Virus record (IMG/VR): IMGVR_UViG_3300028034_000004 | Coordinates: 1 to 56,448 of that record | Origin: a virus | Lineage: Duplodnaviria > Caudoviricetes | Length of the DNA: 56,448 nucleotides | Reading direction: 5' to 3' (one strand) | Shown here: positions 3,001 to 33,398 of the stretch, one piece after another | How the letters are laid out: every line of letters begins with the position of its first letter | How positions within the stretch are numbered: the first letter of the stretch is position 1 | Notes under the pieces: generated by a model | What the model was told of the DNA's origin: nothing | Seen by the model: only the letters and a program-made list of their open reading frames with translations | The model's database searches: none | Position numbers and translations under genes: made by a program

Positions 3001-6000
3001 TTCCTTTCTCATATCCCCAATTTCCTTCTCATTAAGCAATCCTAATTCTTTATCTTGTTTCAGGGCTTTATTAACAAGGATGGTATGCTTATAGAGTTCA
3101 TTGATATCGGAAACATTTAAGCTGCCATTCGGTAATTCATACACTGGTCTGAACTTTGGCGGAAGTATCGGCATTTTAGTCAGAACATAATCTTCTGGTC
3201 TTTTATCCGTTTTCTTTAATGCTTTAAGATATCTTATTCTTTTGTGCAGCCTATCTTTTTTTGGAGCTGACTTTGTTTTTTTCGCTTCTTCTTTGGCTTC
3301 TTTAATTGCTTCATCAATATCTACTTGAGATAAAGCATCTTTAATTGCTTCACCACCGGTTTTTCCATTTAACTTCTCATCACCTGCTAAGACATTGTTA
3401 AATTTTTTGTTGGTGATGCCCAGAATGGAAACTATAGCGTTTTTAAAGACGGGATTAGGTATTGGTTCCTCTAAATTAATATGTGACCATTTACCCTTAT
3501 CCTCGGTGTCTAAACCACCGGTAATATCCGGATCAAAGAGTCCACCTTTTTCTTCTTTTAAGTCTTTAGCTCTTACAATAGTAGCATCATTAATCTCACC
3601 TGCTGACATTTCCTCAATGTCCTTATCGGTCATTGCCATCAGTTGATAATGTTTTTCGCCTTTTTTGACATTAACCCCGAGACCTTTTAATTCATCAATG
3701 AATTTATCGAATACAAATGGCGTCTCAAGCTTAGGTAAAGGTGCACCCACCTGGAAACTACGCCAGAATTCATCATTGCGTTGACCCTTAAGTGTAGACA
3801 TTTCTTTGAGGTTGTGTTTGGCACCGTGAGCAAGAAGTGTATAATTAGTCAAAATATCCATTGACTGTCCTGATGATTTACCACCTTGTATTGGCTGTTC
3901 GTTTTCATCATATCCTTCACCGACACCTCTGGCTGAGAATTTCTTTTTAGTTTGATGTTTTAGTTTTAAGAAATACTGTTTACCGGTAAAAATCGGATTT
4001 TCTAATTCCCCTTCGGTAGGGTCGATTATCTTTTCCTTTTCACTTAAACCGTGCTTTTTTAAGTCTTTTTTAATTTTATCCAAATAATCTTCACCAGAGA
4101 AATTATTAATTTTATATGGCTTACCAGTTTTATCTGCAATTTTACCTGCTGCAGTTTCAAGTAACTGGCTCGGGTTCATTCTCGAAGGCACCGTATGAGG
4201 GTTCAAGATTATTTCAACCGGTTTACCATCTTCATTGTGTGGTGCCTCGTTATCTGGAATAATCTTAGAGATAGTACCTTTATTCCCATAGCGACCTACT
4301 ATTTTATCTCCTTCTTTTGCTTTTTCTTCAGTTTCTACAATAATTTTAATCAGATTACCATTACGGACAACCTCATTAACTTCACCTTCGTTCTCATTAT
4401 CCCACTCAATCGTAAAAGGAGCCTGATCGGGAGCTAAGTTTTTGTGAATATTCTTTAAAAGGTAATCTGTTTCAGTTAAGTTTTTCTTTCGCAAGGCAAC
4501 GAGTAACTTATCACCTTTTTTGACTAACGCTCCTTTTTTAATTACACCTTCATCGTCCATTTTTTGGGCATTATCTGTTTTAAGTTCTCTAGGAAAAATT
4601 ATATTAAATCTTTCTTTATCCATTGTCGTATTGGTATCTTTTTCAAACTCGAAGGTATATAAATGTTCTGACCTCATCTTTTCGGCTGCACTATCTGAAA
4701 TTACAAGTCCATCTTCAAATGTGTAGCCTTTATATGGCATAAAGGCTACATTCAAATTAGTACCTAATGCCATTGTTCCATCTTTAGTAAAGTTTGAATC
4801 AGCTAAGAGTTCGCCTTTTTGAACTTTATCCCCCACTTCGACTTTAATTTCATGTGTAACCATTGAGGACCCACCAAGTGGAAACTTATCGTAAGTATCT
4901 ATTTCTATTTCATCCCCGTTAGATTTTTTAATGGTTAGTGGATCTGTTGAAGTAATTTCACCAGCAACAGGGGCTTTAATGGCATTGTTATTGCCGAGAG
5001 ACTCCTCAAAGGTGGAACCGTCTTCTGTTACTGCTGACTGTACCAGAGGGGCTTCTCTGTTCTTTAAAGATAATGCCTGTTCCTGCATCTTACCACCCAT
5101 CATTGCTCTGTTACCCTGAGTGTTTTGCAAAAATGGAATAAGGTTAGTTGTGTGGTCAAACATACTCTTATCAGAGAGTAGTATATAATCTACTTTAGAA
5201 GAGTCAACCTCATTAACTTCCTTTTTATCCATTACCTTAACCGTTTTATTTTTAAACTTCTTTTTCTTTTTATCATACTGGTCCGGAAAGGCAACAGTTG
5301 ATTCACTCATTTGTTTTGGTGATATCTTTTCGACTTCTTTGGTTTTGGCATTGATTACCCTGGTCTTTAATTCTCCATCCTCAATGTCAGTAGCGACACC
5401 AAGATGAAGGTTAGCACCAATCTTTTGTGACTCTGGTGTATGTACTGGATCTAAGAACCCAAATTGAGAAGGATTAATATTAATCATATCATCAGATAAT
5501 TGGTTGGGGGAACTTATTCCACCCTCGCCCATGATAGTTACTTTTCTGTAATTACCTAACGCCGCCAATGGGTTGGTTATTTCAGTAGCTGCAGTAATAT
5601 CGGAAGATGTGAAAAAAGATTTAATCGGTTCATTAAACAAATTAGGAGAAACTATCTTTTTAATTTCTTCGTGATTATCTACATTGTATTCTACATTTCT
5701 TTTTATTTTATCTACCGACTTATCAATTCTCTCTGACAGATGATCCTCAACTGACATAAATTTCTTAAACACTAAAGAATCTCTGTCATCTTCTTCCTCT
5801 TTATTCTGCATTACTTTTATAAGTTTTTGAGCAGCATGTAATATTAAATCAGCATTCACTCTTTCAAAACTCTTACCTAAAGTAATTTCTGTGGTCTCTT
5901 TATCCATTTCAGCTTCATTGAAATATGTTTTTATATCTTCTTTTGCTTTATCTAAATTGGTGTGATCTGAATAAACTATCTTTTTGGCGAAGTTCTTGAC

Positions 6001-6606
6001 AGCTTTCTTTGTCCTGTGTTCTTTTTCCCGTCTATTCGTGTCGAGGATCTCTTTCCCAAGGAATTGTTCCATATAACTATCTTTGATACCCATACCTTTT
6101 AAGAAGGCATATAAGGATATATTAGAACTCCTGGCGGAAATGTATAATATTTGATCTTCGGGGTCCATCTTGATTTTGAACCCTGGTTTGTTACCAACAT
6201 TGATTTGAGTCTGTAATTCGCCGTTGTTAGCAAACTTTGTGTATACTCCAGCTTTTAACCGCAGCTGATTTGATGCTTGATATTCATTACCATCAACAAG
6301 ATAAGTGTATCTCTGGGTTAGTGCTGGAAGTCTCATTATCTTAACTGTCTTATCATCAATTTTTTCACCAGTTAGATTATCCCAAAGTGTTAAATGGGCT
6401 CTGACTGGAAGAGTTAGACTTCTATTTTTAAGTTTTATTTCCTTTTGTTTCTTTAGAGAATGCAAAGCTTTGGTAGAACCAAACTTTAATTCCTCTAATT
6501 TAAGGGTATGTTTTTTACCTTTGACCGGAAATATCTTAGCAACAGACTGGTCTAATTTCTCTTCAATTTTATTTGTTATCTTTTGTATCTCTTCTTCTGG
6601 AAACAT
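1..6606 (-). CDS. rpoBC: Fused beta-beta' multisubunit-type DNA-directed RNA polymerase, intein-containing; 3' end lies outside the window
   Basis: Hand-translated open frame from ATG 6606 (RBS AAGGAGG at 6613-6619) to base 1. Beta motifs: FGFLDPVHTPESQKIG, GNRAMMGGKMQEQA, MPYKGYTFEDGLVIS, GDKIVGRYGNKGTIS, LNPHTVPSRMN, YFLKLKH. Beta' motifs: LPPKFRP, RKRQDLTGRSII, LNRAPSLHK, NADFDGD (2511-2491), bridge helix GARKGMIDRAKSTAEPG. Confidence 0.95.
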   Translation of the reverse strand, partial: MFPEEEIQKITNKIEEKLDQSVAKIFPVKGKKHTLKLEELKFGSTKALHSLKKQKEIKLKNRSLTLPVRAHLTLWDNLTGEKIDDKTVKIMRLPALTQRYTYLVDGNEYQASNQLRLKAGVYTKFANNGELQTQINVGNKPGFKIKMDPEDQILYISARSSNISLYAFLKGMGIKDSYMEQFLGKEILDTNRREKEHRTKKAVKNFAKKIVYSDHTNLDKAKEDIKTYFNEAEMDKETTEITLGKSFERVNADLILHAAQKLIKVMQNKEEEDDRDSLVFKKFMSVEDHLSERIDKSVDKIKRNVEYNVDNHEEIKKIVSPNLFNEPIKSFFTSSDITAATEITNPLAALGNYRKVTIMGEGGISSPNQLSDDMININPSQFGFLDPVHTPESQKIGANLHLGVATDIEDGELKTRVINAKTKEVEKISPKQMSESTVAFPDQYDKKKKKFKNKTVKVMDKKEVNEVDSSKVDYILLSDKSMFDHTTNLIPFLQNTQGNRAMMGGKMQEQALSLKNREAPLVQSAVTEDGSTFEESLGNNNAIKAPVAGEITSTDPLTIKKSNGDEIEIDTYDKFPLGGSSMVTHEIKVEVGDKVQKGELLADSNFTKDGTMALGTNLNVAFMPYKGYTFEDGLVISDSAAEKMRSEHLYTFEFEKDTNTTMDKERFNIIFPRELKTDNAQKMDDEGVIKKGALVKKGDKLLVALRKKNLTETDYLLKNIHKNLAPDQAPFTIEWDNENEGEVNEVVRNGNLIKIIVETEEKAKEGDKIVGRYGNKGTISKIIPDNEAPHNEDGKPVEIILNPHTVPSRMNPSQLLETAAGKIADKTGKPYKINNFSGEDYLDKIKKDLKKHGLSEKEKIIDPTEGELENPIFTGKQYFLKLKHQTKKKFSARGVGEGYDENEQPIQGGKSSGQSMDILTNYTLLAHGAKHNLKEMSTLKGQRNDEFWRSFQVGAPLPKLETPFVFDKFIDELKGLGVNVKKGEKHYQLMAMTDKDIEEMSAGEINDATIVRAKDLKEEKGGLFDPDITGGLDTEDKGKWSHINLEEPIPNPVFKNAIVSILGITNKKFNNVLAGDEKLNGKTGGEAIKDALSQVDIDEAIKEAKEEAKKTKSAPKKDRLHKRIRYLKALKKTDKRPEDYVLTKMPILPPKFRPVYELPNGSLNVSDINELYKHTILVNKALKQDKELGLLNEKEIGDMRKELFKSMEAVQGLSDPITNDAVRRGKKGILREIGGTSGTQPKNAFFQNRVMRKRQDLTGRSIIVAGPDLDIDTIGLPEEMAWNIFKPQVIRKLTQEAAIPGAEARDEHWEKRSETAKKMLKEVAEETPVILNRAPSLHKFSTMAFKPKLIEGKSIQLPSLVTGGFNADFDGDCALDVCSIGLDEGFMEWNKEKMKKKSKSPLTEYPLSDMMYVSNYKGEDKMVGHIGELIVDGEFVSGNIHLKKFPRIEESKEVKDNTEIYDVPDGVTVLAMDEEGNKKWMPVSKFHIHKNLKMRKIRTNRLNDYLVSDDHSLTVINDELKIKKSVGEINDMMPVVTEIEEPEDPIDVITPINDSYVNAGYNSRLKKEIPLNKETGYIFGAFIGDGNATLSKGKLINKIQLSNSSEPLINKWKEIISSWLNEEINFNTYEKPHTWEGHDCMSIVTEFSEGNIAKMFYDLFGHGAENKHLPSWFMNTSKEFRLGLLSGLLDTDGSITEVKAKAKKKKQVQFSYHTKSLELSKQVQLLCKSLGLKSNVTIYEQNDMEYQNVSMSSVTMENVKDDLLIVTENRKEALSKLKTDAVASSRYDLVPLPEKLGQKIRSAVGSKERKIYAPISNTMKKGYTSRLVAKRAIKKLGDEFFGEGLMKKWKEIVEDETVTWARITKIEEYTKETTAYDITVPDVWTFTLASGLVVYDTMAVHVPVSKEAKEEALEKMLPSKNLFRPGHNNFMYTPGHEQILGLYYLTKNPDKKELKGEYSSKSEALKAYREAKKNKEKWSKEDPIKVNGDIITIGKIIVNQVLPKKYRKYDKAIDKGYLKKMFSELGEDEEFDNSKLADIANELKNLGNEHVYKRGFTVGISDLDIDKKKKDKIYDAAKKKVEKARKKPKEQAQKEIAKIMNEAEKKVYKQITDDNPDNAFVVMQRSGARGNEHNVRQILGGPGILADNKNEIVPVPVTKSYGEGIDTADYWTTMYGARKGMIDRAKSTAEPGAFNKELINNT
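919..2490 (-). mobile_element. Intein with LAGLIDADG homing endonuclease (524 aa)
   Basis: Interrupts NADFDGD|TMAVHVP. Starts with Cys (CALD). Block B-like VSDDHSL; endonuclease motifs GYIFGAFIGDGN and GLLSGLLDTDGS; blocks F/G YDITVPDVWTFTLASGLVVYD, followed by +1 Thr. Confidence 0.92.
2341..2403 (-). promoter_or_regulatory. SigA/sigma70-type promoter, RBS and in-frame ATG inside the intein
   Basis: TTGACT (2403-2398), 17-nt spacer, TATGAT (2380-2375) with extended TG; upstream A-tracts; AAGGGGA 7 nt before in-frame ATG 2343. Confidence 0.7.
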
Positions 6607-6642
6607 TTCAAACCTCCTTTGAAATAACTTCTTATTTTGCAT

Positions 6643-18134: not shown

Positions 18135-18617
18135 TTAACTAATTATTTCTAGTTTATCGCACTTTGCAATGTCTCTTGGTTTAATATCGCCCAAATACAT
18201 ATCCGGAACTAAATCAATATCAATCTCGTTATAAACAATATCAATAAGTTCAGAACAAATTATATAATTGGGATTATTAAACATATTTTTACCTTTAAAT
18301 AAACCAGAAAATAAATAGCCAAATATTTGAGGTAAATCATATTTATTTCCTATACTTTCTAACATTGGTTTGAAAATTTTTTCTTTTTGGATAGAGTTTA
18401 ATCCACCTTTAATTCTCAGGACATCATATTTATCTGGTATCTCATTTAAGTGAATTATATGAACTCCACTCCAAAGATGTGATTCAATCAACAGATTAGA
18501 ATCTTCATGAATAACCATTGCCACATGAGTATAAGGAGATTCAGTAAACCAAGATATCCCTTTATCAATTATATGTTCACCCTTTTCTAATATAATATCG
18601 CCGGTTTCAAGTTTCAT
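18135..18617 (-). CDS. Permuted papain-like amidase (YiiX/YaeF-type NlpC/P60)
   Basis: LETGDIIL...SPYTHVAM...KYD...IICSELI; His precedes Cys. Confidence 0.85.
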   Translation of the reverse strand: MKLETGDIILEKGEHIIDKGISWFTESPYTHVAMVIHEDSNLLIESHLWSGVHIIHLNEIPDKYDVLRIKGGLNSIQKEKIFKPMLESIGNKYDLPQIFGYLFSGLFKGKNMFNNPNYIICSELIDIVYNEIDIDLVPDMYLGDIKPRDIAKCDKLEIIS

Positions 18618-19344
18618 TTATCCACCCCATTAATCTATCAACGATTACTGCCATCTCACCTCTGGTTACTGGATCTCCTGGCCTAAAGTTTTTGGTCTCG
18701 CTAAAGATACCAGCTTTCATGGTTCTTTCAATTTCTTCTTTGGCCCAGTGGTTTTCGTAATCTGTAGTTCTACCATCATATGCTCTCAAGCCTTTGAGGA
18801 TTGCTTTAATTAATTTTCTTTGGTATTGCCTATCATTTAGTAGTCTTTCTTCCTCAACGTTGGTAATGAACCCAAATTCGATTAATATGGCAGGCATATC
18901 AGTGTCATTTAATACATAAAGGTTATCTCTTGATTTAATACCTCTGTCTGGAGTGTCTGTCACTGCAATTAATTCTTTTTGAACTGCTGCAGCTAGTTTT
19001 TTACCTTCTTTTGAATCCGGGTGGTATAATGTTTCAATACCTTTAGCTGATTCAGCAACAGCTGCATTGCAGTGAAAAGAAATAAATACATCAACTTTTT
19101 CTTTATTAGCTATGTTGCATCTTTTTCCTAAAGTTATGTACTTATCTTCTGTTCTTGTTGGAAATACTTCATATTCTTTTTTTGCTTCTTCAATAAAAAG
19201 TTTTCCTAGTTCTAAGTTAATATCGCTTTCCTCTGAATAAATATCATCTTCATAAATCTCGTCATCTAAGGCTTTATCTTTGGGGTCTACTGCCCCTGGA
19301 TCGCTTCCGCCGTGTCCAGAATCTTGTGCTATTTTATTTATCAT
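18607..19344 (-). CDS. Endolysin: N-acetylmuramoyl-L-alanine amidase (Amidase_3) with C-terminal SLH domain
   Basis: DSGHGGSDPGA, ESDINL, FISFHCNA, PAILIEFGFITN; HWAKEEI...FRPGDPVTRGEMA. Confidence 0.93.
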   Translation of the reverse strand: MINKIAQDSGHGGSDPGAVDPKDKALDDEIYEDDIYSEESDINLELGKLFIEEAKKEYEVFPTRTEDKYITLGKRCNIANKEKVDVFISFHCNAAVAESAKGIETLYHPDSKEGKKLAAAVQKELIAVTDTPDRGIKSRDNLYVLNDTDMPAILIEFGFITNVEEERLLNDRQYQRKLIKAILKGLRAYDGRTTDYENHWAKEEIERTMKAGIFSETKNFRPGDPVTRGEMAVIVDRLMGWINET

Positions 19345-21423: not shown

Positions 21424-23052
21424 TCACTTTTTAATCATTTCATAAAATCTGAGAGCAGCTTTACCATCAATTTTTCCAATAGAACATTGTTGGATAGTTG
21501 GAACTATAGATTCGTTGGTTATCTTTTTGTTATAAACAGGGTCGAATTGACAATGTCCTAATTTACAACCTTTGCATATTGGCTCTAATTCTCCATTGAA
21601 AAAACCTTCATCAATATCTTCATATTTATTTTTTAATGAAGGATCCAGATAACTAATTTCATTTTCAATAAATTTTTCGTTGAAAAAGTTATTATTCTGA
21701 TATAAAATATCATCAATAACATTTATATGAAAGACCCCTTCTTTTTGCATAAGGTCTATTATCTTATTTAACTGTTTATCGTACTCATTTAAATTTTTAT
21801 CAGACCAACCAGCTGTATCTTTAAATCTAAATTGAAAATGATAAATATTTTTCTTGAGCCCTTCTAAAACAATATTATATAATTTTGAAACATTATTAAT
21901 TGAAATTTCTATCATCATCTTTATTTTAGCATTTGTCTCAAGTTCAAAATCAGGAATTGAATCAACTAGTATCACAGCATTTTCTTTAATATCAATCTTT
22001 TTAGGATTAACTAATAAAGGTAGAGTTTCCCCTTTTTTTATATATTTCATAACTTTAGTCTCCTTTTTTATTTCTTTTAATCTTTCCCAGTGTTTAAAGG
22101 CTTTTTCAATCATCATTTTAATTAATTTACAATAATTTGCTTGAATTTTCTTTTTAGGTCCATCAATATTTTCATAAAGGAATGAATCATTACCCCAACA
22201 GTTGCAACAATATGCCTCATACTTACATTTATTACATTTATTCCAATTAACATGTTCGTGACTCCTTTCCCCTTTAGCATACTTATATCTGGTACAGTTA
22301 AATTTTTTTCCAGTGGTGCCAACGTAACTTGCATCTTCAAGATCACAAACTATATCATTAATGTATCCTGGCTCATCAAGTCTATATCTTTCTAATTTTA
22401 TTTTTTCTATTTCATCAAGGTGGTCAATTATAAAATTATTAATTTTGTCTAACTCTTTGCTCAAGTTCTCTCTATATTTCTTTGTAAACCCTAAATCATC
22501 TAAATTTAAATAAATTGAAAAATTTCTAAAACCTAAACTATAAAGAAATTTAATATTATCATATGTTTTATTAAGATATTCTTTATCAATAACTGCAGAA
22601 ACTCCCAATTTAATTTTGGTATTATTTTTTATCCATTCATAATTTTTAATAACGTTTTCAAAATTGCCGCCTTTTTTCTTTTGTTCGAATATATCTTTTG
22701 GACCATCTAAAGAGATATCTATAGAAATTATATCTTCATATTTTTTATAGGTTTTTTTCATTCTGTCATCCAATAAAGAAAGATTAGTAGTCATATTAAT
22801 ACTTATGTTTCTTCTATTTTTGATAGCGTTACATTTATTCAATATATATTCAACTAATTCAAAATTTAATATAGGCTCTCCCCCAAAAAGTGTAAAAGAA
22901 ATAAGTTCATCTTTTTTAGTTTTTTTTAGAGACTCCTTAAATAAATCGTCAAAAACTTCTTTCGACATCATTCCTTTTTTATTGATGTGTTCACAATAGT
23001 CACAATTGTAATTGCATTCTTCGGTCAAAAATAAAGTATAAAGTTGGTTCAT
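21424..23052 (-). CDS. Radical SAM/SPASM enzyme fused to a C-terminal CXXX-repeat-maturase-like domain
   Basis: CNYNCDYC, FGGEPIL, TTN, ISLDG; CNKCKYEAYCCNC..NYC; second Cys cluster EPICKGCKLGHC..NKKITNESIVPTIQQC. Confidence 0.85.
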   Translation of the reverse strand: MNQLYTLFLTEECNYNCDYCEHINKKGMMSKEVFDDLFKESLKKTKKDELISFTLFGGEPILNFELVEYILNKCNAIKNRRNISINMTTNLSLLDDRMKKTYKKYEDIISIDISLDGPKDIFEQKKKGGNFENVIKNYEWIKNNTKIKLGVSAVIDKEYLNKTYDNIKFLYSLGFRNFSIYLNLDDLGFTKKYRENLSKELDKINNFIIDHLDEIEKIKLERYRLDEPGYINDIVCDLEDASYVGTTGKKFNCTRYKYAKGERSHEHVNWNKCNKCKYEAYCCNCWGNDSFLYENIDGPKKKIQANYCKLIKMMIEKAFKHWERLKEIKKETKVMKYIKKGETLPLLVNPKKIDIKENAVILVDSIPDFELETNAKIKMMIEISINNVSKLYNIVLEGLKKNIYHFQFRFKDTAGWSDKNLNEYDKQLNKIIDLMQKEGVFHINVIDDILYQNNNFFNEKFIENEISYLDPSLKNKYEDIDEGFFNGELEPICKGCKLGHCQFDPVYNKKITNESIVPTIQQCSIGKIDGKAALRFYEMIKK

Positions 23053-23948
23053 TATATCTCCCTCACTAAGTCAAAATATTTTTGAATAAAATTAGGACGA
23101 TTTATTTTTTCTTTAAAAATACTCCCATTGGCTTCTCTATTTTCTAATAAACATGTAAAACTAACACCTGCTATATTGAAAGGTCTTCTTTTGTTTTCAT
23201 CAATTCCATCATAAATATTGCCAAGTCTATTCTCCGGATAGTCATAATTTACACAAGGATAGATATCTCCCCTTTCATTAATCATTAAATGATTTTTGCA
23301 TTCGCAAAAACCTTTGGTTTCTATATTGAGGATTTGTTTTAAATTTTTATATTGCATACATTTTTTTCTGAAATAATTTTCAAATTTATCCCAATCAAGT
23401 TCTTCATCCCAATCAATTCCATTTGCAATTAATATATCATACCCCGGATAAATATTTTCTTTAATAAAATCTATAATTCTATCTAAACTAAAAATAGTAG
23501 AAGGAGTAACTACAGTATTCACTCTTGTAATGAAGTGCCTAAAAAACCAAAGGTTATTCATTACTTTATCAAAGGAATTGTTTCTGTTAGCATCTTGTAT
23601 ATCTTTTGGTCCATCAAAACTTAAAATGATGCTTATTCTGTCTTTGTTTTTTAAAAATATTTCCTGTATTTTTTGATTTAATACTGTTCCGTTGGTTATT
23701 ATTTTTAATTTAATTTCAGGAAAATTTTCCGCAAATATATTTATTATTTTCGGATTTAACAAAGGTTCCCCTCCGGTAAACAGTATCCTGTCGAAGTTTT
23801 CATCTGAACTCTTTATAAATTTTGATATATTCTGCGCCATATCAGATGACATCTTTATTTTCTCAGCTGGTAGGTCACAATAAGAACAATTTAAATTACA
23901 ATTTTTGGTTGGTTTAATAAATAATGTGTATCCATCCAATTCCCTCAC
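23052..23948 (-). CDS. Radical SAM enzyme with shortened SPASM/twitch domain
   Basis: CNLNCSYC, FTGGEPLL, ITNGT, LSFDG, GDIYPC, LGNI. Confidence 0.9.
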   Translation of the reverse strand: MRELDGYTLFIKPTKNCNLNCSYCDLPAEKIKMSSDMAQNISKFIKSSDENFDRILFTGGEPLLNPKIINIFAENFPEIKLKIITNGTVLNQKIQEIFLKNKDRISIILSFDGPKDIQDANRNNSFDKVMNNLWFFRHFITRVNTVVTPSTIFSLDRIIDFIKENIYPGYDILIANGIDWDEELDWDKFENYFRKKCMQYKNLKQILNIETKGFCECKNHLMINERGDIYPCVNYDYPENRLGNIYDGIDENKRRPFNIAGVSFTCLLENREANGSIFKEKINRPNFIQKYFDLVREI

Positions 23949-23951
23949 CCT

Positions 23952-24950
23952 TTAGTATTTGTAATCTTCTATTTTATCAATTTCATTTAATATTTCTTCA
24001 AGGTTAAAATCACCTTTACCATAAGAAGAAATATAGTCAATCATAACAAATAAAAATGCTTTCTTCGATCTTGAATCATCATCTTCATAATGTTCTTCCC
24101 AATATTTTTTAGATATTTCTCTGAAATTGGAATCAATTCTTGAAGGATAATTAACATTCAAATAATCAAAATAAGATTCTAATACATATCCTTTAAATTT
24201 CGTGTTATTGTATAATTTCATAAAATAATCTTCTAAATCTATATAACCGCTATTTACAGCCATTTTAGCAGCAGAATACATAGTAATTCTTCCGTAATTA
24301 TCTATTGATCCTTCTTTTTCTAATTTTTCAGTGGCATCAATTATTTCCTCCATGAGAAGGTCTATTTTTTCGGTATCTTCGTCCGCGAGTGCTTTCTGCA
24401 ATCTTATTTCAGTAACCTGCAGTAATATATCATAATGATCATAATTAAATCTTGTTGTTATTTTATCAAAATTTAAATTATCAACAATATATTCTTTATC
24501 CTCTTTTAGTTTTTCTAATTCATCAAAATATTTTTGATTATCTTCTAAATTAGAAGATAAAATAAAGTTTCCAAGATAGGTCATGGCATGCATTTTATCT
24601 TTTATATCATTTGCATTTTTTGCCTTTTTAAAAAGATTATCAATAGCTTCTTTTTTGGATATTTTAGAAACCATTACATTTAAAATATCAAGGGTTATGT
24701 TTATTGAATCATATTTTAAAATTTTAGAATAATCATTATTAATTCTTTCTACCAAAGAATTAATAAATTTAAAAGATGATTCTTCTAATAAGAAAATTCG
24801 AAGAGCGCTTGATAATAATCTAACTGCGTTTTCTTCATCCATTTTACTATCCAATATTTTGTCGACTTTTTTGAAAAAACCGTTTAAATTTTCTTCTTGA
24901 ATATTTTTGACTAAGTAATTAACATTTTCATTAATTTTATCAATTTCCAT
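23952..24950 (-). CDS. Hypothetical all-helical (TPR-like?) protein in the rSAM cluster
   Basis: 332-aa ORF with AAGGGGG RBS; helical amphipathic pattern. Confidence 0.7.
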   Translation of the reverse strand: MEIDKINENVNYLVKNIQEENLNGFFKKVDKILDSKMDEENAVRLLSSALRIFLLEESSFKFINSLVERINNDYSKILKYDSINITLDILNVMVSKISKKEAIDNLFKKAKNANDIKDKMHAMTYLGNFILSSNLEDNQKYFDELEKLKEDKEYIVDNLNFDKITTRFNYDHYDILLQVTEIRLQKALADEDTEKIDLLMEEIIDATEKLEKEGSIDNYGRITMYSAAKMAVNSGYIDLEDYFMKLYNNTKFKGYVLESYFDYLNVNYPSRIDSNFREISKKYWEEHYEDDDSRSKKAFLFVMIDYISSYGKGDFNLEEILNEIDKIEDYKY

Positions 24951-24957
24951 TTTTATT

Positions 24958-25360
24958 CCCCCTTAAAACCATCTACCATCACACCCATCACAACCACCAG
25001 CACAAGTTCCTCTACAAGACCCAGAACATGATCCTGTACAGCTAATACATGTTGAAGAACACGTTCCACCACACCCTTCACATAATCCAGCACAAGTTCC
25101 ATTACACCCACTATCAGTTCCCACATCTGGTTTACTAACAAAGAAATTGGTTCTATTCCTTAAGTCATAAAAATGGCTAGATTTTATTATTACTTTATTA
25201 TCTTTTAAATTAACATCATCTAACCAGGAATAAGGCTCTATCAAATCTAAACTATTTCGATAATCATTTATTATACTTCCTAAAATTAAATCTTCCTTTT
25301 GTACTCCCAATTGAACACCCCCTTAAAACCATCTACCATCACACCCATCACAACCACCAG
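24958..25360. repeat. Identical 43-bp direct repeat (24958-25000 and 25318-25360)
   Basis: CCCCCTTAAAACCATCTACCATCACACCCATCACAACCACCAG occurs twice, 360 bp apart. Confidence 0.95.
24963..25310 (-). CDS. Cys-x-x-x repeat protein, putative rSAM modification target
   Basis: IKSSHFYDLR motif, then a 12-Cys tail ending GGCDGCDGRWF. Confidence 0.85.
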   Translation of the reverse strand: MGVQKEDLILGSIINDYRNSLDLIEPYSWLDDVNLKDNKVIIKSSHFYDLRNRTNFFVSKPDVGTDSGCNGTCAGLCEGCGGTCSSTCISCTGSCSGSCRGTCAGGCDGCDGRWF

Positions 25361-26873
25361 AGCAACTACCATAACATGTTCCGGTACAACCGCCTTTACA
25401 TGTCCCAGCACAATTTCCGACACAATTACCACCACAAGTGCCACTACATCCTTGACATAAACTAGCACATCCCGAGTTACATCCATCACTTGGCACATTT
25501 CTTCGTATCATCTCATCATCGATATAACTTATTATTTCATTAGTGTGTAATGCTTTTATAAGAGTTTCTTTAGCAATCAAATCATCTGTAAATTCTATCG
25601 TTTTAACTACATTATCTATTTTTGAGATATTTATTGTTCCTGCATGATCTGAAACTATTGGTTGATCAGCTGTTATAATAAATTCTAAAGTATTATTCCC
25701 GAAAATTAATTCACTATATTGGATTGTTTCGTTAATTAAAATTGGAGCGTCGCTTAAAAAAGTTACATTTTTATAACTGGTTCCATTTAAAAATATTTCA
25801 TATGCTATTTTTATTGGTTCTGCATTGATTTCTCTTAAGTACCCGCTAACATCAACATTCATAGGGTTTACAGATTCAACATTTGTAGGACTTACAGTTA
25901 TATCAGTTAATTCAATTCGAGGAACATAAGTATAAGTATCTTCTCCAATATATTCCGGAACATTTGATACCTGACCATAGTCATCTCTTCCCCAAGCAAA
26001 ATTTATTAAAGTTCCATTTTTTAGACTACCATCTGTGGTCATTGCTAAAGCATGGTTATATCCGGCATCAACTTCTGAAAAAATAAGTTCTGGATGATCT
26101 GGATAATCTGGATAATCTAATATTTGATTATAATTATCTCTTCCCCAAGCTTCTAATTTTCCGTCTGATTTCAATCCAACTGTAAAATTCTGACCCGAAT
26201 CTAAATCTGTAAAATTATTTAAATAAGGTGTATTAGTAACCTGACCATAAGTATCATCTCCAAAGGAAATTATAACCCCATCTTCTCGGAGTGCAGCGCC
26301 GTGTGATTCTCCGGCTGATATTTTACTATAATTATTTCCAGTGGGTGTATCAATCCCAACCCCTTTTAAGGTGCCATCATACATTAAAAGGAGAACAAAA
26401 TTGTGGCCAGCTTCCACATCTATTATACCACCGTGAACGGGTAGATCATTTAAGATTGGATTATCCCCAATACCTTTTATGTGACCGCTTTCGTCAAGAC
26501 CCACTCCAAAATCACTGCTTGCTGTTATTTTGACAAAATTATTATCAGGTGGAATATTAGATATTAAACCCCAACTAGTTATAGAACCACCAGATAAAGC
26601 TAATGAAAATTCATCCCCGGCAGCAATTTGTTCAAATGTTCCACTCGGGGTATTCGTTATCAATCCATTAGCATCGTTACCAACAGTTTCTAAATGACCA
26701 TCAAAATATCTAACAGTTGTATGATTGTTACCTGCAGCTAGATGATTTTCGAAATCAGTAGAATTAAGTGACAATTGAGGAGGTATTTCTAAAGTTGAAT
26801 CAAAATCAACATTTCCATCAATATAATTTATAACATTAATGTCGATTGAAGAATTAAGATCATTGGTTGGCAT
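25323..26873 (-). CDS. RCC1-repeat beta-propeller fibre/receptor-binding-like protein with C-terminal Cys-x-x-x repeat tail
   Basis: Repeats IAAGDEFSLAL, ISAGESHGAAL..DG, WGRDNYNQ, VDAGYNHALA; Ig-like segment; IKALHTNEI; 13-Cys tail ending GGCDGCDGRWF. Confidence 0.85.
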   Translation of the reverse strand: MPTNDLNSSIDINVINYIDGNVDFDSTLEIPPQLSLNSTDFENHLAAGNNHTTVRYFDGHLETVGNDANGLITNTPSGTFEQIAAGDEFSLALSGGSITSWGLISNIPPDNNFVKITASSDFGVGLDESGHIKGIGDNPILNDLPVHGGIIDVEAGHNFVLLLMYDGTLKGVGIDTPTGNNYSKISAGESHGAALREDGVIISFGDDTYGQVTNTPYLNNFTDLDSGQNFTVGLKSDGKLEAWGRDNYNQILDYPDYPDHPELIFSEVDAGYNHALAMTTDGSLKNGTLINFAWGRDDYGQVSNVPEYIGEDTYTYVPRIELTDITVSPTNVESVNPMNVDVSGYLREINAEPIKIAYEIFLNGTSYKNVTFLSDAPILINETIQYSELIFGNNTLEFIITADQPIVSDHAGTINISKIDNVVKTIEFTDDLIAKETLIKALHTNEIISYIDDEMIRRNVPSDGCNSGCASLCQGCSGTCGGNCVGNCAGTCKGGCTGTCYGSCSGGCDGCDGRWF

Positions 26874-27993
26874 TTTCTACCTCCTCAATTTTTTCAAAGA
26901 AATATTTGTTTGCTTTATACTGTGCTTCAACCATATCACAAAACATTCCTTCTCTTCTAAAAATAGAACCGCTGACATCATAATTGTAGGCGGTACACCA
27001 GGAGCACATTTTTTTATATTCACATTCATTACATTTCTTTTTGTATTCTCCTTGAATTGTTTGAAGATTAACATATTCAAATGGTTTTAATTTATTTTGA
27101 TCTATCCCATTATAAATGTCTCCTATTGCTAAATTATCCCTTTGCGATAATGTTTGAAACCTATGACAGGGATATAATTCTCCATTAATTCCTATTGAAA
27201 TCATGCTTGTTCCCGAGCCACACCAATTTCTATATTTTAAATCTTCGCCGTCACTATTATAAAGATGAGTAAAATAACCGACATAAATATCTTCGTAAAG
27301 CCCCGTATCTATTAAATAATCAGCTAATTTAATTAATTGATTTTTAAAAATTTCTGGATCATCCTCAGTCCAAACATTTTCAAAAACATTGTTTATTTCT
27401 ATTCTATCAAGACCTAAATCTATCAAATGTTTAACACTTTCAAAAAGATAAGGAAGGGTATCATGATTTACCGTAGCTTTTATATTATTCCAAGGGAAGG
27501 TTTTTCTCCACCAATCAAAATCTTCCATTATTTTATCATAAGACCCATTTCCTTCTACTGTTTTACGATTTAAATCATGAGCTATTTTAGAACCATCTAA
27601 ACTTATTCCTACGCTTAATTTATTTCTATTTCGTTTTAAAATTTCTTTTATTTTGTCGGTAAATAAAGTTCCATTTGTTGTTATCGAATAAATTCTATTA
27701 TTTTTCCAAGGATGGTCCAAATCAATTAGCTTCTCATCTATGTATTTTATTATATCATACATTAAGTCAAACTCAACTAAAGGTTCTCCTCCAATAAATT
27801 CGAAAATTCCCTTATCATGTTTAACCGGTTTGTTTAATATATAATCAACTGCATCTTTGGCAACATCCAAATCCATCGTAATGTGTTTTTTGTTTTCCTC
27901 ATAACAATAAGTACATCTTAAATTACATTTTTCGGTAATCATAAATGAAACTGTTTGTGCAATTGGATTATCTTTTGGTTTTTTATATCTCAT
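26860..27993 (-). CDS. Radical SAM/SPASM peptide maturase, CXXX-repeat target family-like
   Basis: CNLRCTYC, FIGGEPL, TTNGT, NNVFENVW, NWCGSG, YPCHRF, CNEC..MCSWCTAYNY..FCDM. Confidence 0.9.
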   Translation of the reverse strand: MRYKKPKDNPIAQTVSFMITEKCNLRCTYCYEENKKHITMDLDVAKDAVDYILNKPVKHDKGIFEFIGGEPLVEFDLMYDIIKYIDEKLIDLDHPWKNNRIYSITTNGTLFTDKIKEILKRNRNKLSVGISLDGSKIAHDLNRKTVEGNGSYDKIMEDFDWWRKTFPWNNIKATVNHDTLPYLFESVKHLIDLGLDRIEINNVFENVWTEDDPEIFKNQLIKLADYLIDTGLYEDIYVGYFTHLYNSDGEDLKYRNWCGSGTSMISIGINGELYPCHRFQTLSQRDNLAIGDIYNGIDQNKLKPFEYVNLQTIQGEYKKKCNECEYKKMCSWCTAYNYDVSGSIFRREGMFCDMVEAQYKANKYFFEKIEEVENANQ

Positions 27994-28004
27994 TTTATCT
28001 CCCC

Positions 28005-28454
28005 TTAAAAGTTATCCAGTTTCTCCAACAAAAGGCCAATTTCTTCGTTTATCTTTTCTTTTATGAAATCGGGAGCTTGATAATTTAATAAAGTTTCTAA
28101 TTTATTTTTCATTAACATATGTTTTACCATTTTTCTTTCTTCATTTTTAATCAAGTCATCAATAATGTTTAGTGACTTATTTATATCTTTATTAAAATGA
28201 TAATTAAATAAAAATATTTGATAATAAAAATCACTTACCTCTTCTGAAAGGATAAATAAATATTTATTGGAGTTTTCTTTAGATTCTATTTTTCTAAAAA
28301 GAACATCAAGTGGACCCATTAAACCTTCAATCCATTCAAATTTATCATAAACTGCTTCTATTTTTTCTGACCATTTTCTAAAATCGTTTAAATCATCTTT
28401 TTCAATGGCGAGTATAAGCCTTGCTTTCAATATTGTTTTATCTTTAGATAACAT
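28005..28454 (-). CDS. Hypothetical helical protein
   Basis: Start moved to ATG 28454 (AGGAGG RBS). Confidence 0.7.
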   Translation of the reverse strand: MLSKDKTILKARLILAIEKDDLNDFRKWSEKIEAVYDKFEWIEGLMGPLDVLFRKIESKENSNKYLFILSEEVSDFYYQIFLFNYHFNKDINKSLNIIDDLIKNEERKMVKHMLMKNKLETLLNYQAPDFIKEKINEEIGLLLEKLDNF

Positions 28455-28464
28455 TTGTTCCCTC

Positions 28465-29532
28465 CTAACAATTTTGTACAAACATCCATATTCTTTTTTC
28501 TTCACCTTCAGCAAGTGGTTCTAAAGCTTTACCTATTATAGTTCCTGGGACATTATCTTTTGATTTTCTTGCAAACCCTTTTTTAGAAGAAGTTTCTAAT
28601 TGGTCCATTGTTTCGATTGGTCCTATAGCTTTTACTTTTACTCTTCCGCATAAACCTTGTGGTGCATATTTTTTTAAATTTTCTTTTTCAGATACATTCT
28701 CCCCTCCAATATAAATTCCATAAGTATCAGAATAAACACCCATTACTCTTTTATCACCTGCTTCTGTGCAGGCTTTAACGCCGTCATTATCCCAAATTAA
28801 AACATCACCTGGTTCTACATCTTCGTTCTTTGGCATAAACTCAGCTAGGTCATTATAAACTGCTCTAGATATTTTAGCGTCATTATCTAAGATTTGATAT
28901 TTAACACCACCGGTATCATATTTAAATAACTGTGCTTGAGGACCTAAAGTAGTGTCTCCTTCAACAGCATTTATTTCAAATACTGGGTCATCATTATTAT
29001 TATATATACTTAAAGCAAACTCATCATTATCTGCATCACCGGTTTTGATTAGCATACCACCAGCATCGGTACCTGTTGTTTGTAATAAAAATCCATAATT
29101 ACCTCCTGCCCCGCTGTTACCGGTAGTAAAAGAATATTGTTTACCTGGTGTTATCACTTCAAGGTTATCTTCTAAACCAACTTTACTTTTGAGATTAGTA
29201 TCTCCATACACGGTTAAATCACCATCGGCTTGAATATAACTATTGCTTCTTATATGACCTACAGCTGTTATATAATCAGAAAATTCCCCAAAACCACCGA
29301 ATGTTGAATCGCCACTAATATCTAAATTACCCGTCGCAGCTACATTGGCATTAATTTGTAAGTCATTTTCTATAACGGGATCAGCTAACCATTCTTCCCA
29401 AATTTCTGTATTATGTAGTGTATTTTCCCACAATCTTTGAAGTGGTCGGTTAGCAACACCGGCAACTACATTTTCGGTTAAATCTATTAATTCTATTTCA
29501 TCTATTGTTCTATGAAATGGTGTACTAGGCAT
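28465..29532 (-). CDS. Tail fibre/spike protein with C-terminal intramolecular-chaperone (peptidase G2-like) domain
   Basis: ANRPLQRLWENT anchor; beta repeats GNLDISG/GDLTVYG; NDLAEF..EPGDVL..VMGVYS..GRVKVK..GTIIGKAL. Confidence 0.75.
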   Translation of the reverse strand: MPSTPFHRTIDEIELIDLTENVVAGVANRPLQRLWENTLHNTEIWEEWLADPVIENDLQINANVAATGNLDISGDSTFGGFGEFSDYITAVGHIRSNSYIQADGDLTVYGDTNLKSKVGLEDNLEVITPGKQYSFTTGNSGAGGNYGFLLQTTGTDAGGMLIKTGDADNDEFALSIYNNNDDPVFEINAVEGDTTLGPQAQLFKYDTGGVKYQILDNDAKISRAVYNDLAEFMPKNEDVEPGDVLIWDNDGVKACTEAGDKRVMGVYSDTYGIYIGGENVSEKENLKKYAPQGLCGRVKVKAIGPIETMDQLETSSKKGFARKSKDNVPGTIIGKALEPLAEGEEKRIWMFVQNC

Positions 29533-31628: not shown

Positions 31629-33398
31629 TTATACACCTTCTTCTTTGGCTACCGAAACTTTAGGCACCATTGTTTGATAAGGTAATATTTTATATTCATC
31701 TTCGATCGGAATATATTCATCGGTGCTCCCTATACCGTTTGGCGATTGGCAACTAAATGAAATATTATAAGCCGATGAATCCATCATATTCCCATTGGAG
31801 AAGACCATTATTCTCCCCTCTTGATAATCTATTTGATAATCGATGTTCCTTTTAAATACTGTTATACCATCAGTTACAGTCTCGGTGTTATAGAGGATTT
31901 TAAAATATGGTAAATCTACATATGTATCATAATTACTATTAAATGAAATTGGATTATCCAAAGTTATATAAGGTGTATCCAACTCCAAAGTCATTGGCAA
32001 CTTTACTTTTTCTACATTTTCTGCATAAAGTGTACTTATGAGATCTGAAACCTCAAATATTCGCCGCATCGGTTCACCATAATTTGAATATTCACTACTC
32101 GCTCTTGTTTCATTATAATGATAATATTTGATAAAATAATTTATTTTTTCCTGTAATTCCAATTCTTCAATTTCTCCTCTATAATATATTATACCATAAA
32201 GGGGGAGCAATTCAAAGTGGCGAATTAGGGGATCTCCAACGGGCATTCGGTTCTTAGGATCATTAATAAACTTTTGCATTTGAGGTATCGCTGGACTTGC
32301 TAAAGCTCTAATTCTTATATCCGAGACCACATTTTCATAAGTAGTCCCCGTAAAATCTAAAATTGATTTTTGTCTTACGGAATTTTCAGTAAAGAGTGAT
32401 TGAATGAAATCAACTCCATTTATTGTACCAGTCACTTCACCATCGGAAGTTAATGCAGAAACTTCTAAAGCTCTAACAATAACCATATCTATAGGTTCAC
32501 CTTGGCTGTTTTTGGCGGTATATGTATGACCGTTTTCAAACATTTCCGTACCTAGATCGCCGATGCTAAAGCCAAAGTTAACAGTTGGATCTTCTGTTTT
32601 AGTTATGTCAAATTCATATTCTGCTAAGTCATTATTTTCAACCCAAATATCATGCATGTTACCTACTCGGTATTCTTTATTGTTGATTACTTCAATTTCT
32701 CTGCGCATTAATTCATCACCAGTTCTAATTGGAAAAATATTAATTATTGTGCTGGCAAATTTATTTTTTAAAACCGACTTAATGGCCGGTTCATTAGAAA
32801 GATTTCTGACTGATATGCTATCCTGCACTCTCTCATATGTTTTCTCGGGAGGTTCCACACCAGCTCCATTATTAAATCCATAAGGATTACTTATTTGCAC
32901 GGCTCTACTTTCTATAATAGGATTTAAACAGGTAGTTATAGCTTTCGGGTCTATATTATACTCATCAGATTTTTCTTCCGCTATAACCTCTAATTCGTGA
33001 TAATAATACATACCTTCAGAATAATTAGCCATTTCAGTTGAAGTTATTTGGGTGTCTTTGATTGCACTAAATCTTAAATCGTTATCGGTGGCAAAACCTG
33101 TGCCTTCTTTAACTGTTAAATCCGTCGGTGAATCAAAATAAACCCTAACCGCTCCTTGGGCATATTCTCCCGAAGAAACATCTACAAAAAAATTGCCAGC
33201 AAACATTTCTTGGTCGTCTTTTTCTAATTCATTGAAGTTTAAAAAGGATAACTTTTTTGGGAGATTGTCAATTTCTATTTTTATTGGCTCGTTAAGCTGC
33301 AAATATTTTTTGGTGAAAAGATCGTCAACTGTGTTGTTTAAGGTGACATCAACTCCTATGTCGTTTAAATCCCTTCTTACTTTTTCTTTAAAATCCAT
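31629..33398 (-). CDS. Baseplate J-like (gp6/gp47) protein
   Basis: AQGAVRVYF, GTGFAT..LRF, AEEKSDEYNI, NPYGFNNGAGVE. Confidence 0.8.
   Translation of the reverse strand: MDFKEKVRRDLNDIGVDVTLNNTVDDLFTKKYLQLNEPIKIEIDNLPKKLSFLNFNELEKDDQEMFAGNFFVDVSSGEYAQGAVRVYFDSPTDLTVKEGTGFATDNDLRFSAIKDTQITSTEMANYSEGMYYYHELEVIAEEKSDEYNIDPKAITTCLNPIIESRAVQISNPYGFNNGAGVEPPEKTYERVQDSISVRNLSNEPAIKSVLKNKFASTIINIFPIRTGDELMRREIEVINNKEYRVGNMHDIWVENNDLAEYEFDITKTEDPTVNFGFSIGDLGTEMFENGHTYTAKNSQGEPIDMVIVRALEVSALTSDGEVTGTINGVDFIQSLFTENSVRQKSILDFTGTTYENVVSDIRIRALASPAIPQMQKFINDPKNRMPVGDPLIRHFELLPLYGIIYYRGEIEELELQEKINYFIKYYHYNETRASSEYSNYGEPMRRIFEVSDLISTLYAENVEKVKLPMTLELDTPYITLDNPISFNSNYDTYVDLPYFKILYNTETVTDGITVFKRNIDYQIDYQEGRIMVFSNGNMMDSSAYNISFSCQSPNGIGSTDEYIPIEDEYKILPYQTMVPKVSVAKEEGV

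Follow-up and report, generated by a model that had tools for sequence, protein, structure and literature searches.

Gene Organization of the Cassette

The IMG/VR virus record IMGVR_UViG_3300028034_000004 (Duplodnaviria; Caudoviricetes) was analysed as a complete record, linear and 56,448 bases long, with a CheckV completeness of 31%; this whole stretch is called the window below. Like the other IMG/VR contigs used here, it is a predicted virus. Between the tail genes and the holin gene, the window contained eight tightly packed genes on the minus strand, with intergenic gaps of -14 to 29 nt. In the order of transcription they encode a fibre protein of 355 amino acids (aa), a helical protein (149 aa), a radical S-adenosylmethionine (radical-SAM) enzyme (377 aa), two proteins of 516 and 115 aa that end in a run of regularly spaced cysteines (a Cys ladder), a helical-repeat protein (332 aa) and two more radical-SAM enzymes (298 and 542 aa). 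The segment 21424-28454 corresponded exactly to genes 2 to 8 of this run, if the 149-aa protein starts at its ATG, and these seven genes form the cassette described here. Its features and the flanking genes are the following:

28465-29532, minus strand: tail-fibre protein, 355 aa, with a phi29-gp12-type chaperone C-terminus
28005-28454, minus strand: accessory protein, 149 aa, predicted all-helical, no known family
26860-27993, minus strand: lead radical-SAM/SPASM maturase (putative), 377 aa, TIGR04115-type
25323-26873, minus strand: proposed target 1, RCC1 plus ladder protein, 516 aa
25503-25580, minus strand: pre-ladder helical segment of target 1 (residues ~432-457), bearing the IKxxHxxEI motif
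25326-25481, minus strand: Cys ladder of target 1 (residues 465-516)
24963-25310, minus strand: proposed target 2, a free-standing pre-ladder segment plus ladder, 115 aa (ladder at 24966-25106)
23952-24950, minus strand: accessory protein, 332 aa, alpha-helical repeat of the TPR/HEAT type
23052-23948, minus strand: second radical-SAM enzyme, 298 aa
21424-23052, minus strand: third radical-SAM enzyme, 542 aa
20951-21394, minus strand: holin (phrog_36209, E 1.2e-15), downstream boundary and start of the lysis cassette

An initial annotation, made from the sequence of the window and its open reading frames (ORFs), had placed the cassette in the tail operon between a fibre gene and the lysis genes. 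This position was borne out, with a Peptidase_G2-type fibre gene before the cassette and the holin and endolysin genes after it. We propose, as a reading that has about an even chance of being correct, that the cassette serves as a radical-SAM maturation system of the CXXX-repeat type, carried by the phage. Its substrates would be the two ladder proteins of the tail module, the ladders being cross-linked in place.

The Cysteine-Ladder Proteins

All 13 cysteines of the 516-aa protein (target 1) were located within residues 465-511, with a spacing of 3,3,2,3,3,3,3,3,3,3,3,2. The 115-aa protein (target 2) showed the same organization, its 12 cysteines lying within residues 69-110 at intervals of three residues and a few of two. 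The description given in the initial annotation, of two proteins ending in 12-13 cysteines mostly arranged as CxxxC, was exact, and neither protein had a cysteine elsewhere. A chance origin of the ladder is excluded, because the other 464 residues of target 1 are devoid of cysteine. The last 11 residues were identical in the two proteins, and target 2 was homologous to residues 384-516 of target 1 (BLASTP E 4e-21). Asp was present only in the last two repeats of these ladders.

Target 1 is composed of an N-terminal segment of 42 aa, an RCC1-type propeller (~43-311), a beta-sandwich (~320-420), the helical pre-ladder segment and the ladder. It matched Pfam RCC1_2 (E 2.5e-27) and phrog_13857, "tail protein" (E 1.6e-6). 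The AlphaFold model, calculated from a three-row alignment, had a mean pLDDT of 50.9 and was confident only at residues 320-420 (83-89), which formed the beta-sandwich. Of the "RCC1-propeller/Ig protein" announced in the initial annotation, the RCC1 part had the Pfam match, and the "Ig" part corresponded to nothing other than this beta-sandwich. Two helices were modelled with low confidence in the pre-ladder segment (435-441 and 445-457). The motif IKxxHxx(E/D)(I/L), which the initial annotation had placed before both ladders, was present in both proteins. The pre-ladder helical segment is a candidate leader-like recognition element or oligomerisation element.

When scanned alone, the last 99 aa of target 1 scored 20.4 bits (E 5.2e-4) on the TIGR04114 repeat model, for a cut-off of 20. 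Target 2 scored 14.2 bits (E 0.046), under this cut-off, and neither ladder protein scanned whole gave a TIGR04114 match at E <= 0.01. The ladder of target 1 also matched phrog_6085 (E 3.6e-5).

Two homologues of target 1 (P0002 and P0003, with 51% and 48% identity) kept all 13 cysteines, the motif and the pre-ladder segment. Similarly, two relatives of target 2 (P0037 and P0038) and the copy in metagenome contig L105 retained the 12 cysteines and the motif. L105, which has 74% nucleotide identity to the window, keeps the order RCC1-ladder gene, small ladder gene, helper gene. In the comparison with L105, the ratio of nonsynonymous to synonymous substitution rates (dN/dS) was 0.106 for the 516-aa protein and 0.209 for the 115-aa protein; both are under purifying selection. 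In P0009, another RCC1 relative, the fusion partner was an endosialidase-chaperone domain (PF13884). The contigs of P0002 and P0003 were not returned by the metagenome scan, and the scan of genome contigs with the RCC1 alignment gave generic RCC1 proteins only. The 115-aa protein and the related ladder protein P0060 had no tblastn match in the phage collection, a search in which the low-complexity filter may hide ladders.

The Radical-SAM Enzymes

The three radical-SAM genes were confirmed at their annotated positions on the minus strand. Each product passed Pfam Radical_SAM (E 8.8e-14 for the 377-aa, 1.6e-15 for the 298-aa and 7e-15 for the 542-aa protein) and possessed the CxxxCxxC motif. 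The 377-aa enzyme, called the lead enzyme here, aligned with the whole of TIGR04115, the CXXX-repeat-target maturase family (340.1 bits, E 2e-101, profile positions 1-359 of 359; 339.9 bits in the six-frame scan). A relative from a gut phage, L020, scored 513.2 bits on the same model. The second-best family was PapB (NF047865), with 250.3 bits for a cut-off of 340. Relatives from public sources, at 38-70% identity, are named "CXXX-repeat target family" maturases. The radical-SAM cysteines C23, C27 and C30 and the SPASM cysteines C258, C276, C321, C324, C330, C333 and C352 were invariant among 22 aligned sequences, and the Pfam SPASM match was below threshold (17.6 vs 21.5 bits). Of the traits of the TIGR04115 type, the lead enzyme has the radical-SAM core, a full set of SPASM cysteines and Cys-x3 targets encoded next to it; its score stays 10 bits under the cut-off of 350. 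Among solved structures the closest was 5wgg (E 2.9e-29), with an alignment that begins at residue 95 of its chain. The part of 5wgg (CteB) before this residue is the leader-binding domain, and the lead enzyme is devoid of an N-terminal leader-binding (RRE-like) domain of this kind.

The two other enzymes were more divergent. The 298-aa enzyme has cysteines at positions 17, 21, 24, 197, 215, 217, 232 and 266, of which only five are downstream of the radical-SAM motif. Its scores were 95.4 bits for the PapB family and 55.2 bits for TIGR04115, and its auxiliary cysteine region looks truncated or twitch-like. The 542-aa enzyme consists of a radical-SAM core, a SPASM-like cysteine cluster (236-285) and a C-terminal extension of ~230 aa ending in a CxxCx4C...C motif. 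It scored 84.3 bits on the PapB family (cut-off 340). On TIGR04119 it reached 42.8 bits with the whole protein and 52 bits with the C-terminal 258 aa, below the cut-off of 150, and the match was confined to residues 473-541, corresponding to profile positions 116-185 of 210. A SPASM domain had been assigned to all three enzymes; this holds fully for the 377-aa enzyme, and not for the 298-aa enzyme, where the region is shortened, nor for the 542-aa enzyme, which has only the SPASM-like cluster and the partial TIGR04119 match. The three families TIGR04114, TIGR04115 and TIGR04119, which the initial annotation had cited, exist, and all gave matches in the HMM scan.

The Fibre Gene Upstream of the Cassette

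Residues 219-355 of the 355-aa protein (~136 aa) shared 31-44% identity with the C-terminal ends of nine proteins encoded at other viral loci. The proteins sharing this C-terminus spanned ~190 to 2076 aa. A profile made from the segment and its nine homologues matched the pre-neck appendage chaperone of phage phi29 (3gqh, E 1.8e-4; 6qz9, E 3.6e-4). The Pfam domain Peptidase_G2 (PF11962) was found in nine of the ten aligned C-termini, the copy next to the cassette giving no Pfam match alone. Based on these matches to the phi29 auto-chaperone and to Peptidase_G2, the gene before the cassette encodes a true fibre or spike-type protein bearing an autoproteolytic intramolecular chaperone domain of the phi29 gp12 type.

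Recurrence in Other Viruses and in Protein Databases

Two sets of loci were assembled from IMG/VR. The enzyme-first set contained 80 loci kept from at least 445 relatives found with a lead-enzyme profile; when this enzyme was used as a single-protein query, no loci had been returned. The ladder-first set contained 80 loci kept from 88 found with a profile of the ladder proteins, and at least three contigs were common to both sets. An ORF was counted as a ladder when it had at least seven cysteines with gaps of at most six residues. In the enzyme-first set, a ladder ORF was present in 75 of 80 loci, mostly within 2 kb and on the same strand. Conversely, an enzyme scoring at least 100 bits was present in 74 of the 80 ladder-first loci, and the six other contigs ended 0.6-1.9 kb after the ladder gene. 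This two-way co-occurrence makes it very likely that the ladder proteins and the enzymes are related as substrate and enzyme. Most enzyme-first loci (71 of 80) had a single radical-SAM gene, eight had two and one had three.

A HMMER search with the last 99 residues of target 1 in 1.84 billion representative proteins gave 90 matches at E <= 1e-3. After two close homologues were set aside, 85 of the 88 carried a ladder of at least six cysteines. They fell into three groups: short peptides made of a leader and a ladder, peptides bearing a Tat-like signal, and helix-plus-ladder proteins of 110-280 aa. In the latter, one to three copies of a helix of the type "xxHxxELRxxINxLE" are followed by a ladder that opens with C-x3-C-x-G-(L/M)-C. 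Both ladder proteins of the window belong with this third group. The initial annotation had called the IKxxHxx(E/D)(I/L) motif common in phage fibres; the analysis covered its enrichment before ladders. The strict motif preceded 12 of the 85 related ladders, compared to 0.0008 occurrences per 45 residues in 1511 other ORFs. Across the related ladders, 2923 of 3784 Cys-to-Cys intervals were of three residues, Gly was favoured at the middle position (41-58%), and Asp and Glu represented 4.7% and 2.1% of the non-Cys residues. The distance from the last cysteine to the C-terminus peaked sharply at five residues (26 of 85 ladders), the distance also seen here. An F, W or Y was present in the last three residues of 34 of 72 C-terminal ladders, compared to 284 of 1511 other ORFs. 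This C-terminal signature was common to cellular and phage ladders.

These data bear on a quite improbable explanation, in which the ladders would not be substrates at all. They would bind metals or iron-sulfur clusters, in the manner of a metallothionein or a cluster carrier, or form extracellular disulfides, and the radical-SAM enzymes would act elsewhere. Dense cysteines with small residues can bind metal, and AlphaFold showed no structure for the apo tail; against this, the co-occurrence in both directions and the NCBIfam naming of the pair argue for enzyme and substrate, and the nearest characterised relatives act on peptide cysteines. The strict three-residue spacing with a middle Gly is, moreover, not a known cluster-binding pattern.

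The initial annotation had suggested a survey of whether such clusters sit in tail modules, and the coupling to a fibre gene recurred in many viral contigs. In 48 of the 80 ladder-first loci, the ladder gene began just at the end of an ORF that carries a fibre domain of this Peptidase_G2 type, and a fibre-type C-terminus was found directly upstream of the cassette in 14 of the 80 enzyme-first loci. Among the 25 PHROG families most matched by the 81 dereplicated upstream neighbours (counted per family, not per locus), ten were "tail fiber", three "tail protein", two "collagen like minor tail" and one "baseplate"; no other named function was present among these 25. The ladder was fused to an SGNH esterase in locus L010 and to an ALK-type Gly-rich domain in L054.

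Among cultivated phages, 117 records had a relative of the lead enzyme. In the Salmonella phage SPN3US, the gene of the "virion structural protein" gp167 and a pair of radical-SAM genes, gp164 and gp163, flank two ladder ORFs, one of them unannotated. The product of the upstream gene gp168 is described as a tail protein in PMC5105663. In the record NC_027402.1 of this phage (L002, 3088-3486), an ORF with 14 ladder cysteines was observed between gp99 and gp100 (RefSeq tags); it is unannotated in both SPN3US records.

The Helical Accessory Proteins

The initial annotation had mentioned two helical accessory genes, and both were recovered as such. The 149-aa protein is counted from the ATG at 28454 and would have 169 aa if the TTG at 28514 were used. 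The Atlas record holds the longer form from residue 21, which supports the ATG, and a start at ATG 28454 is most likely. Its single-sequence AlphaFold model showed eight helices with low confidence (pLDDT 61.5). The Atlas model of the 332-aa protein aligned to TPR proteins (TM 0.66 by query) and resembled TPR/HEAT repeats. A search of 5.8 billion proteins yielded only two relatives of this protein, with 56% and 51% identity. One of them is probably encoded on the same contig as the RCC1-ladder homologue P0002, since the longest recorded contig has 9885 bases for both. Neither helper matched a family in Pfam, NCBIfam or PHROG, no relationship between the two was detected (E 0.46), and they are confined to a narrow clade. 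Atlas feature matches of the helpers to DUF6707 (0.85-0.90) are to be taken as leads only. The complex prediction of the 332-aa, 149-aa and 115-aa proteins had a score of 0.00 and a mark of 0.32, and counts neither for nor against binding.

The gene immediately before that of the lead enzyme encodes the 149-aa protein. In the other viruses this position is frequently taken by a family of ~108 aa (~97-143 aa), found beside the CXXX-type enzyme in 57 of the 80 enzyme-first loci and directly upstream of it in 56. Four members that were scanned had no NCBIfam match. The family is absent from the window and was not detectably related to either of the cassette helpers; it constitutes an undescribed helper of phage cassettes.

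Composition and Surroundings of the Cassette

The G+C content was 24-29% in the genes of the three enzymes and the two helpers, 34-35% in the two ladder genes and the fibre gene, and 35.5% in the remaining tail module. The low values of the enzyme and helper genes could indicate a separate origin, or simply result from the amino-acid composition. They are as expected of acquired DNA, which brings in the possibility that the cassette is a moron making a modified bacteriocin, signal or exclusion factor, the long N-termini of the ladder proteins being leaders or carriers. Lysis would release such a product with no exporter needed, and the enzyme family and many of the small ladder peptides, with their short leaders or Tat-like signals, are cellular and resemble peptides that are made by ribosomes and modified after translation (RiPPs). 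We consider a moron unlikely, to a clear degree. Scans with NCBIfam, Pfam and PHROG revealed no transporter (ABC or other), peptidase or immunity family in the seven genes, as had been noted initially, and no double-Gly site precedes the ladder. A propeller plus sandwich of 464 aa is no leader. The tight packing inside a late tail operon and the recurrence of the fibre-ladder order across many viral contigs also speak against a moron. The initial view that the targets are not secreted peptides is in line with these observations, the targets being whole proteins and genes for export, cleavage and immunity being absent.

Genes of at least 90 aa were nearly all on the minus strand from ~12.9 kb to the end of the record. 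Outside the cassette, the following genes were recognized, the first four from their PHROG matches:

51250-53031: head maturation protease
48176-49117: major head protein
44022-45593: tail sheath
31629-33398: baseplate wedge protein
18607-19344, minus strand: endolysin (phrog_435, E 2.2e-49)
18135-18617, minus strand: Peptidase_C92 protein, 160 aa, directly downstream of the endolysin

The peptidase-like gene closest to the cassette, and the only one in its vicinity, was the Peptidase_C92 gene of the lysis module. Its product, of a permuted papain-like amidase family, matched with E 2.2e-8, above the Pfam cut-off, and probably acts as a second hydrolase of the cell wall. The final ~45 residues of the amidase-type endolysin, judged by eye, seem to resemble a wall-binding segment of the S-layer-homology type; if true, this would hint at a host with such a cell wall. 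The scan for promoters and terminators gave no signal above shuffled sequences. The sheath protein had one weak tblastn match in the phage collection and no cultivated relative there.

The segment 18579-27930 was colinear with the metagenome contig L104 (10009 bases), with 95.4% nucleotide identity overall and a mosaic distribution. From the lead enzyme through the holin the proteins were 98.7-100% identical, and the next three proteins of the lysis module were 77-94% identical (dS 0.5-1.9). This pattern indicates a recent recombination boundary near 20.6-20.9 kb.

A minus-strand ORF (1-6642, at least 2214 aa) runs off the start of the window. Its residues ~45-993 matched the beta subunit of bacterial RNA polymerase and residues ~1087-1384 the beta' subunit (phmmer against PDB, E 5e-77 and 4e-78). 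It would be a single fused and divergent beta-beta' RNA polymerase of the multisubunit type.

Comparison with Known Systems

The families TIGR04115 (maturase), TIGR04114 (repeat) and TIGR04119 (second maturase) are in silico definitions of NCBIfam/TIGRFAM, and to our knowledge the CXXX-repeat radical-SAM system that they delineate is uncharacterised. The initial designation of the cassette as a "new system" was too strong, since the enzyme and target families had already been defined in this way. What is new here is the set of three radical-SAM enzymes, the RCC1 fusion and the clade-specific helpers. As in the CXXX-repeat system, the lead enzyme spans the whole TIGR04115 profile and the targets have Cys-x3 repeats in which Gly, Ser and Thr abound; the C-terminal Cys motif of the third enzyme is also common with TIGR04119. 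The differences are that the targets are a multidomain 516-aa protein and a 115-aa protein encoded in a phage tail operon, and not short peptides, that there are three enzymes and helpers without family, and that the lead enzyme scores slightly below the cut-off.

As a precedent for a ladder of rings, PapB (freyrasin) comes nearest; it is reported to make six small thioether rings in tandem from Cys motifs that repeat, Cys being linked to Asp or Glu (PMC12373016). For each of the three enzymes PapB came second among the families (250.3, 95.4 and 84.3 bits), all scores being below the cut-off of 340. PapA, unlike the targets proposed here, is a small peptide, and acidic residues in the present ladders are limited to the Asp of the last two repeats. 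The SCIFF maturase CteB (5wgg), a thioether-forming SPASM enzyme, shares the layout of a radical-SAM core followed by a two-cluster SPASM domain; its part before residue 95 has no counterpart here, and TIGR03974 gave 158.6 bits for a cut-off of 425.

QhpD and the anaerobic sulfatase maturase are SPASM enzymes that modify cysteines in a protein subunit and not in a free peptide. They offer a radical-SAM precedent on a protein kept in a larger assembly (TIGR03906, 145 bits; TIGR03942, 84.5 bits; 4k37, E 1.7e-14). The scores fell well short of the family cut-offs, these enzymes act on unrelated substrates, and those systems have no phage context. Compared to a classical cluster for an exported RiPP, the precursors are of unusual size (115 and 516 aa), and the leader peptidase, exporter and immunity genes are missing.

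On the phage side, gp38 of the T-even phages is a Gly-rich adhesin encoded after the fibre gene, and the capsid of HK97 is held by an isopeptide chainmail. The ladder gene likewise occupies the slot after the fibre gene, and a Gly-rich module of small residues ends a fibre-associated protein in both cases. The fibre of the window shares its type of chaperone domain with the autochaperone of phi29 gp12. The known virion cross-links are autocatalytic, and we know of no phage that modifies a structural protein with radical-SAM enzymes. A literature search for radical-SAM systems, of the CXXX-repeat kind or any other, that act on tail proteins of phages returned no paper. In the one phage paper that features a radical-SAM "maturase", it is termed an antibiotic-synthesis gene.

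Proposed Function of the Cassette

We propose the following scheme for the cassette. The fibre, the enzymes and both ladder proteins would be expressed together from the operon late in infection. The 377-aa SPASM enzyme would recognize the conserved pre-ladder helix and the start motif of the ladder, C-x3-C-x-G-L-C. An enzyme devoid of a leader-binding domain, next to a conserved pre-ladder helix and start motif, suggests a leader-like recognition, perhaps via a TPR-like helper; the helical accessory proteins perhaps stand in for the missing domain. Radical chemistry would then form successive small sulfur-to-carbon (thioether) rings from the cysteines, and the two further radical-SAM enzymes may add or complete cross-links. 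If thioethers form, most acceptor atoms would belong to Gly, Ser, Thr or Asn and not to acidic residues, because acidic residues follow only the last two cysteines. The two extra enzymes may supply the chemistry for these non-acidic acceptors. The product would be a short rigid C-terminal rod or knob resisting reduction and proteases. Such rods could be tips, or could anchor the RCC1-propeller protein, as a receptor-binding protein, and its small partner to the neighbouring fibre. That modification occurs, that it yields thioethers and that the products are in the virion is what we infer from sequence.

The ladder proteins are somewhat more probably tail-associated than not. A location in the virion is suggested by the position in the operon, the recurring order of fibre gene then ladder gene, the surface-acting fusion partners and the endosialidase-type chaperone of P0009.

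Several points weigh against the proposed maturation of tail proteins. The lead enzyme lies 10 bits below the TIGR04115 cut-off (350), and 90 bits above the next family. The acidic residue that follows each cysteine in PapB-type substrates is missing, Asp being restricted to the last two repeats. The two extra enzymes and both helpers had no orthologues in the 80 enzyme-first loci, so that the roles given to them above are guesses, and the AlphaFold model of the tail of the 516-aa protein was uninformative (pLDDT 25-28). Tail-fibre PHROG domains were found in only 3 of 51 other ladder proteins. Among the 53 scanned ladder proteins, a total that includes both of the window, 22 matched only phrog_6085, whose function is unassigned. 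The passages on SPN3US in PMC5105663 do not mention the ladder proteins among the virion proteins, and gp163-166 had no mention in the literature-search results for the two SPN3US virion papers.

The last two observations would also fit a situation in which the ladder proteins are modified and remain intracellular, as tail-fibre assembly chaperones or scaffolds that are not in the finished particle. The ladder gene came directly after the fibre gene in the 48 ladder-first loci mentioned above. This slot is the usual place of fibre assembly factors, and the gene in it can encode an assembly chaperone that is not part of the virion. Of the three alternatives considered here, this is the hardest to exclude; we nevertheless regard it as unlikely. 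The fibre of the window already has its own intramolecular chaperone domain, the domains to which ladders are fused (RCC1 propeller, SGNH esterase, tail-fibre domains) would be meaningful outside the cell and not in an assembly factor, and a costly covalent hardening would be of little use to a transient chaperone.

Significance for Phage Tails and for Radical-SAM Maturation

If the ladders were indeed enzymatically cross-linked tail parts, they would represent a new class of virion modification for phage structural biology. RiPP enzymology would gain a peptide-type maturase that acts on full-length proteins kept in an assembly. The system is widespread, as indicated by the at least 445 relatives of the enzyme in IMG/VR. 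The question is testable with existing genetics and proteomics, since relatives occur in the cultivated model phage SPN3US. Protein engineering would also profit from a thioether-stapled rod of Gly, Ser, Thr and Cys, as a stable scaffold.

A more general hypothesis, which appears tentative and falls short of an even chance, is that many phage lineages use radical-SAM enzymes to stitch a portable Cys-ladder module into a covalent rod, locking accessory heads that bind or degrade receptors, such as those of the RCC1 or esterase type, onto the fibre or forming its hardened tip. If true, this would be the first case of virion structural proteins being cross-linked after translation by radical-based enzymes, and the ladder would be a plug-in docking module letting tails swap their host-recognition heads.

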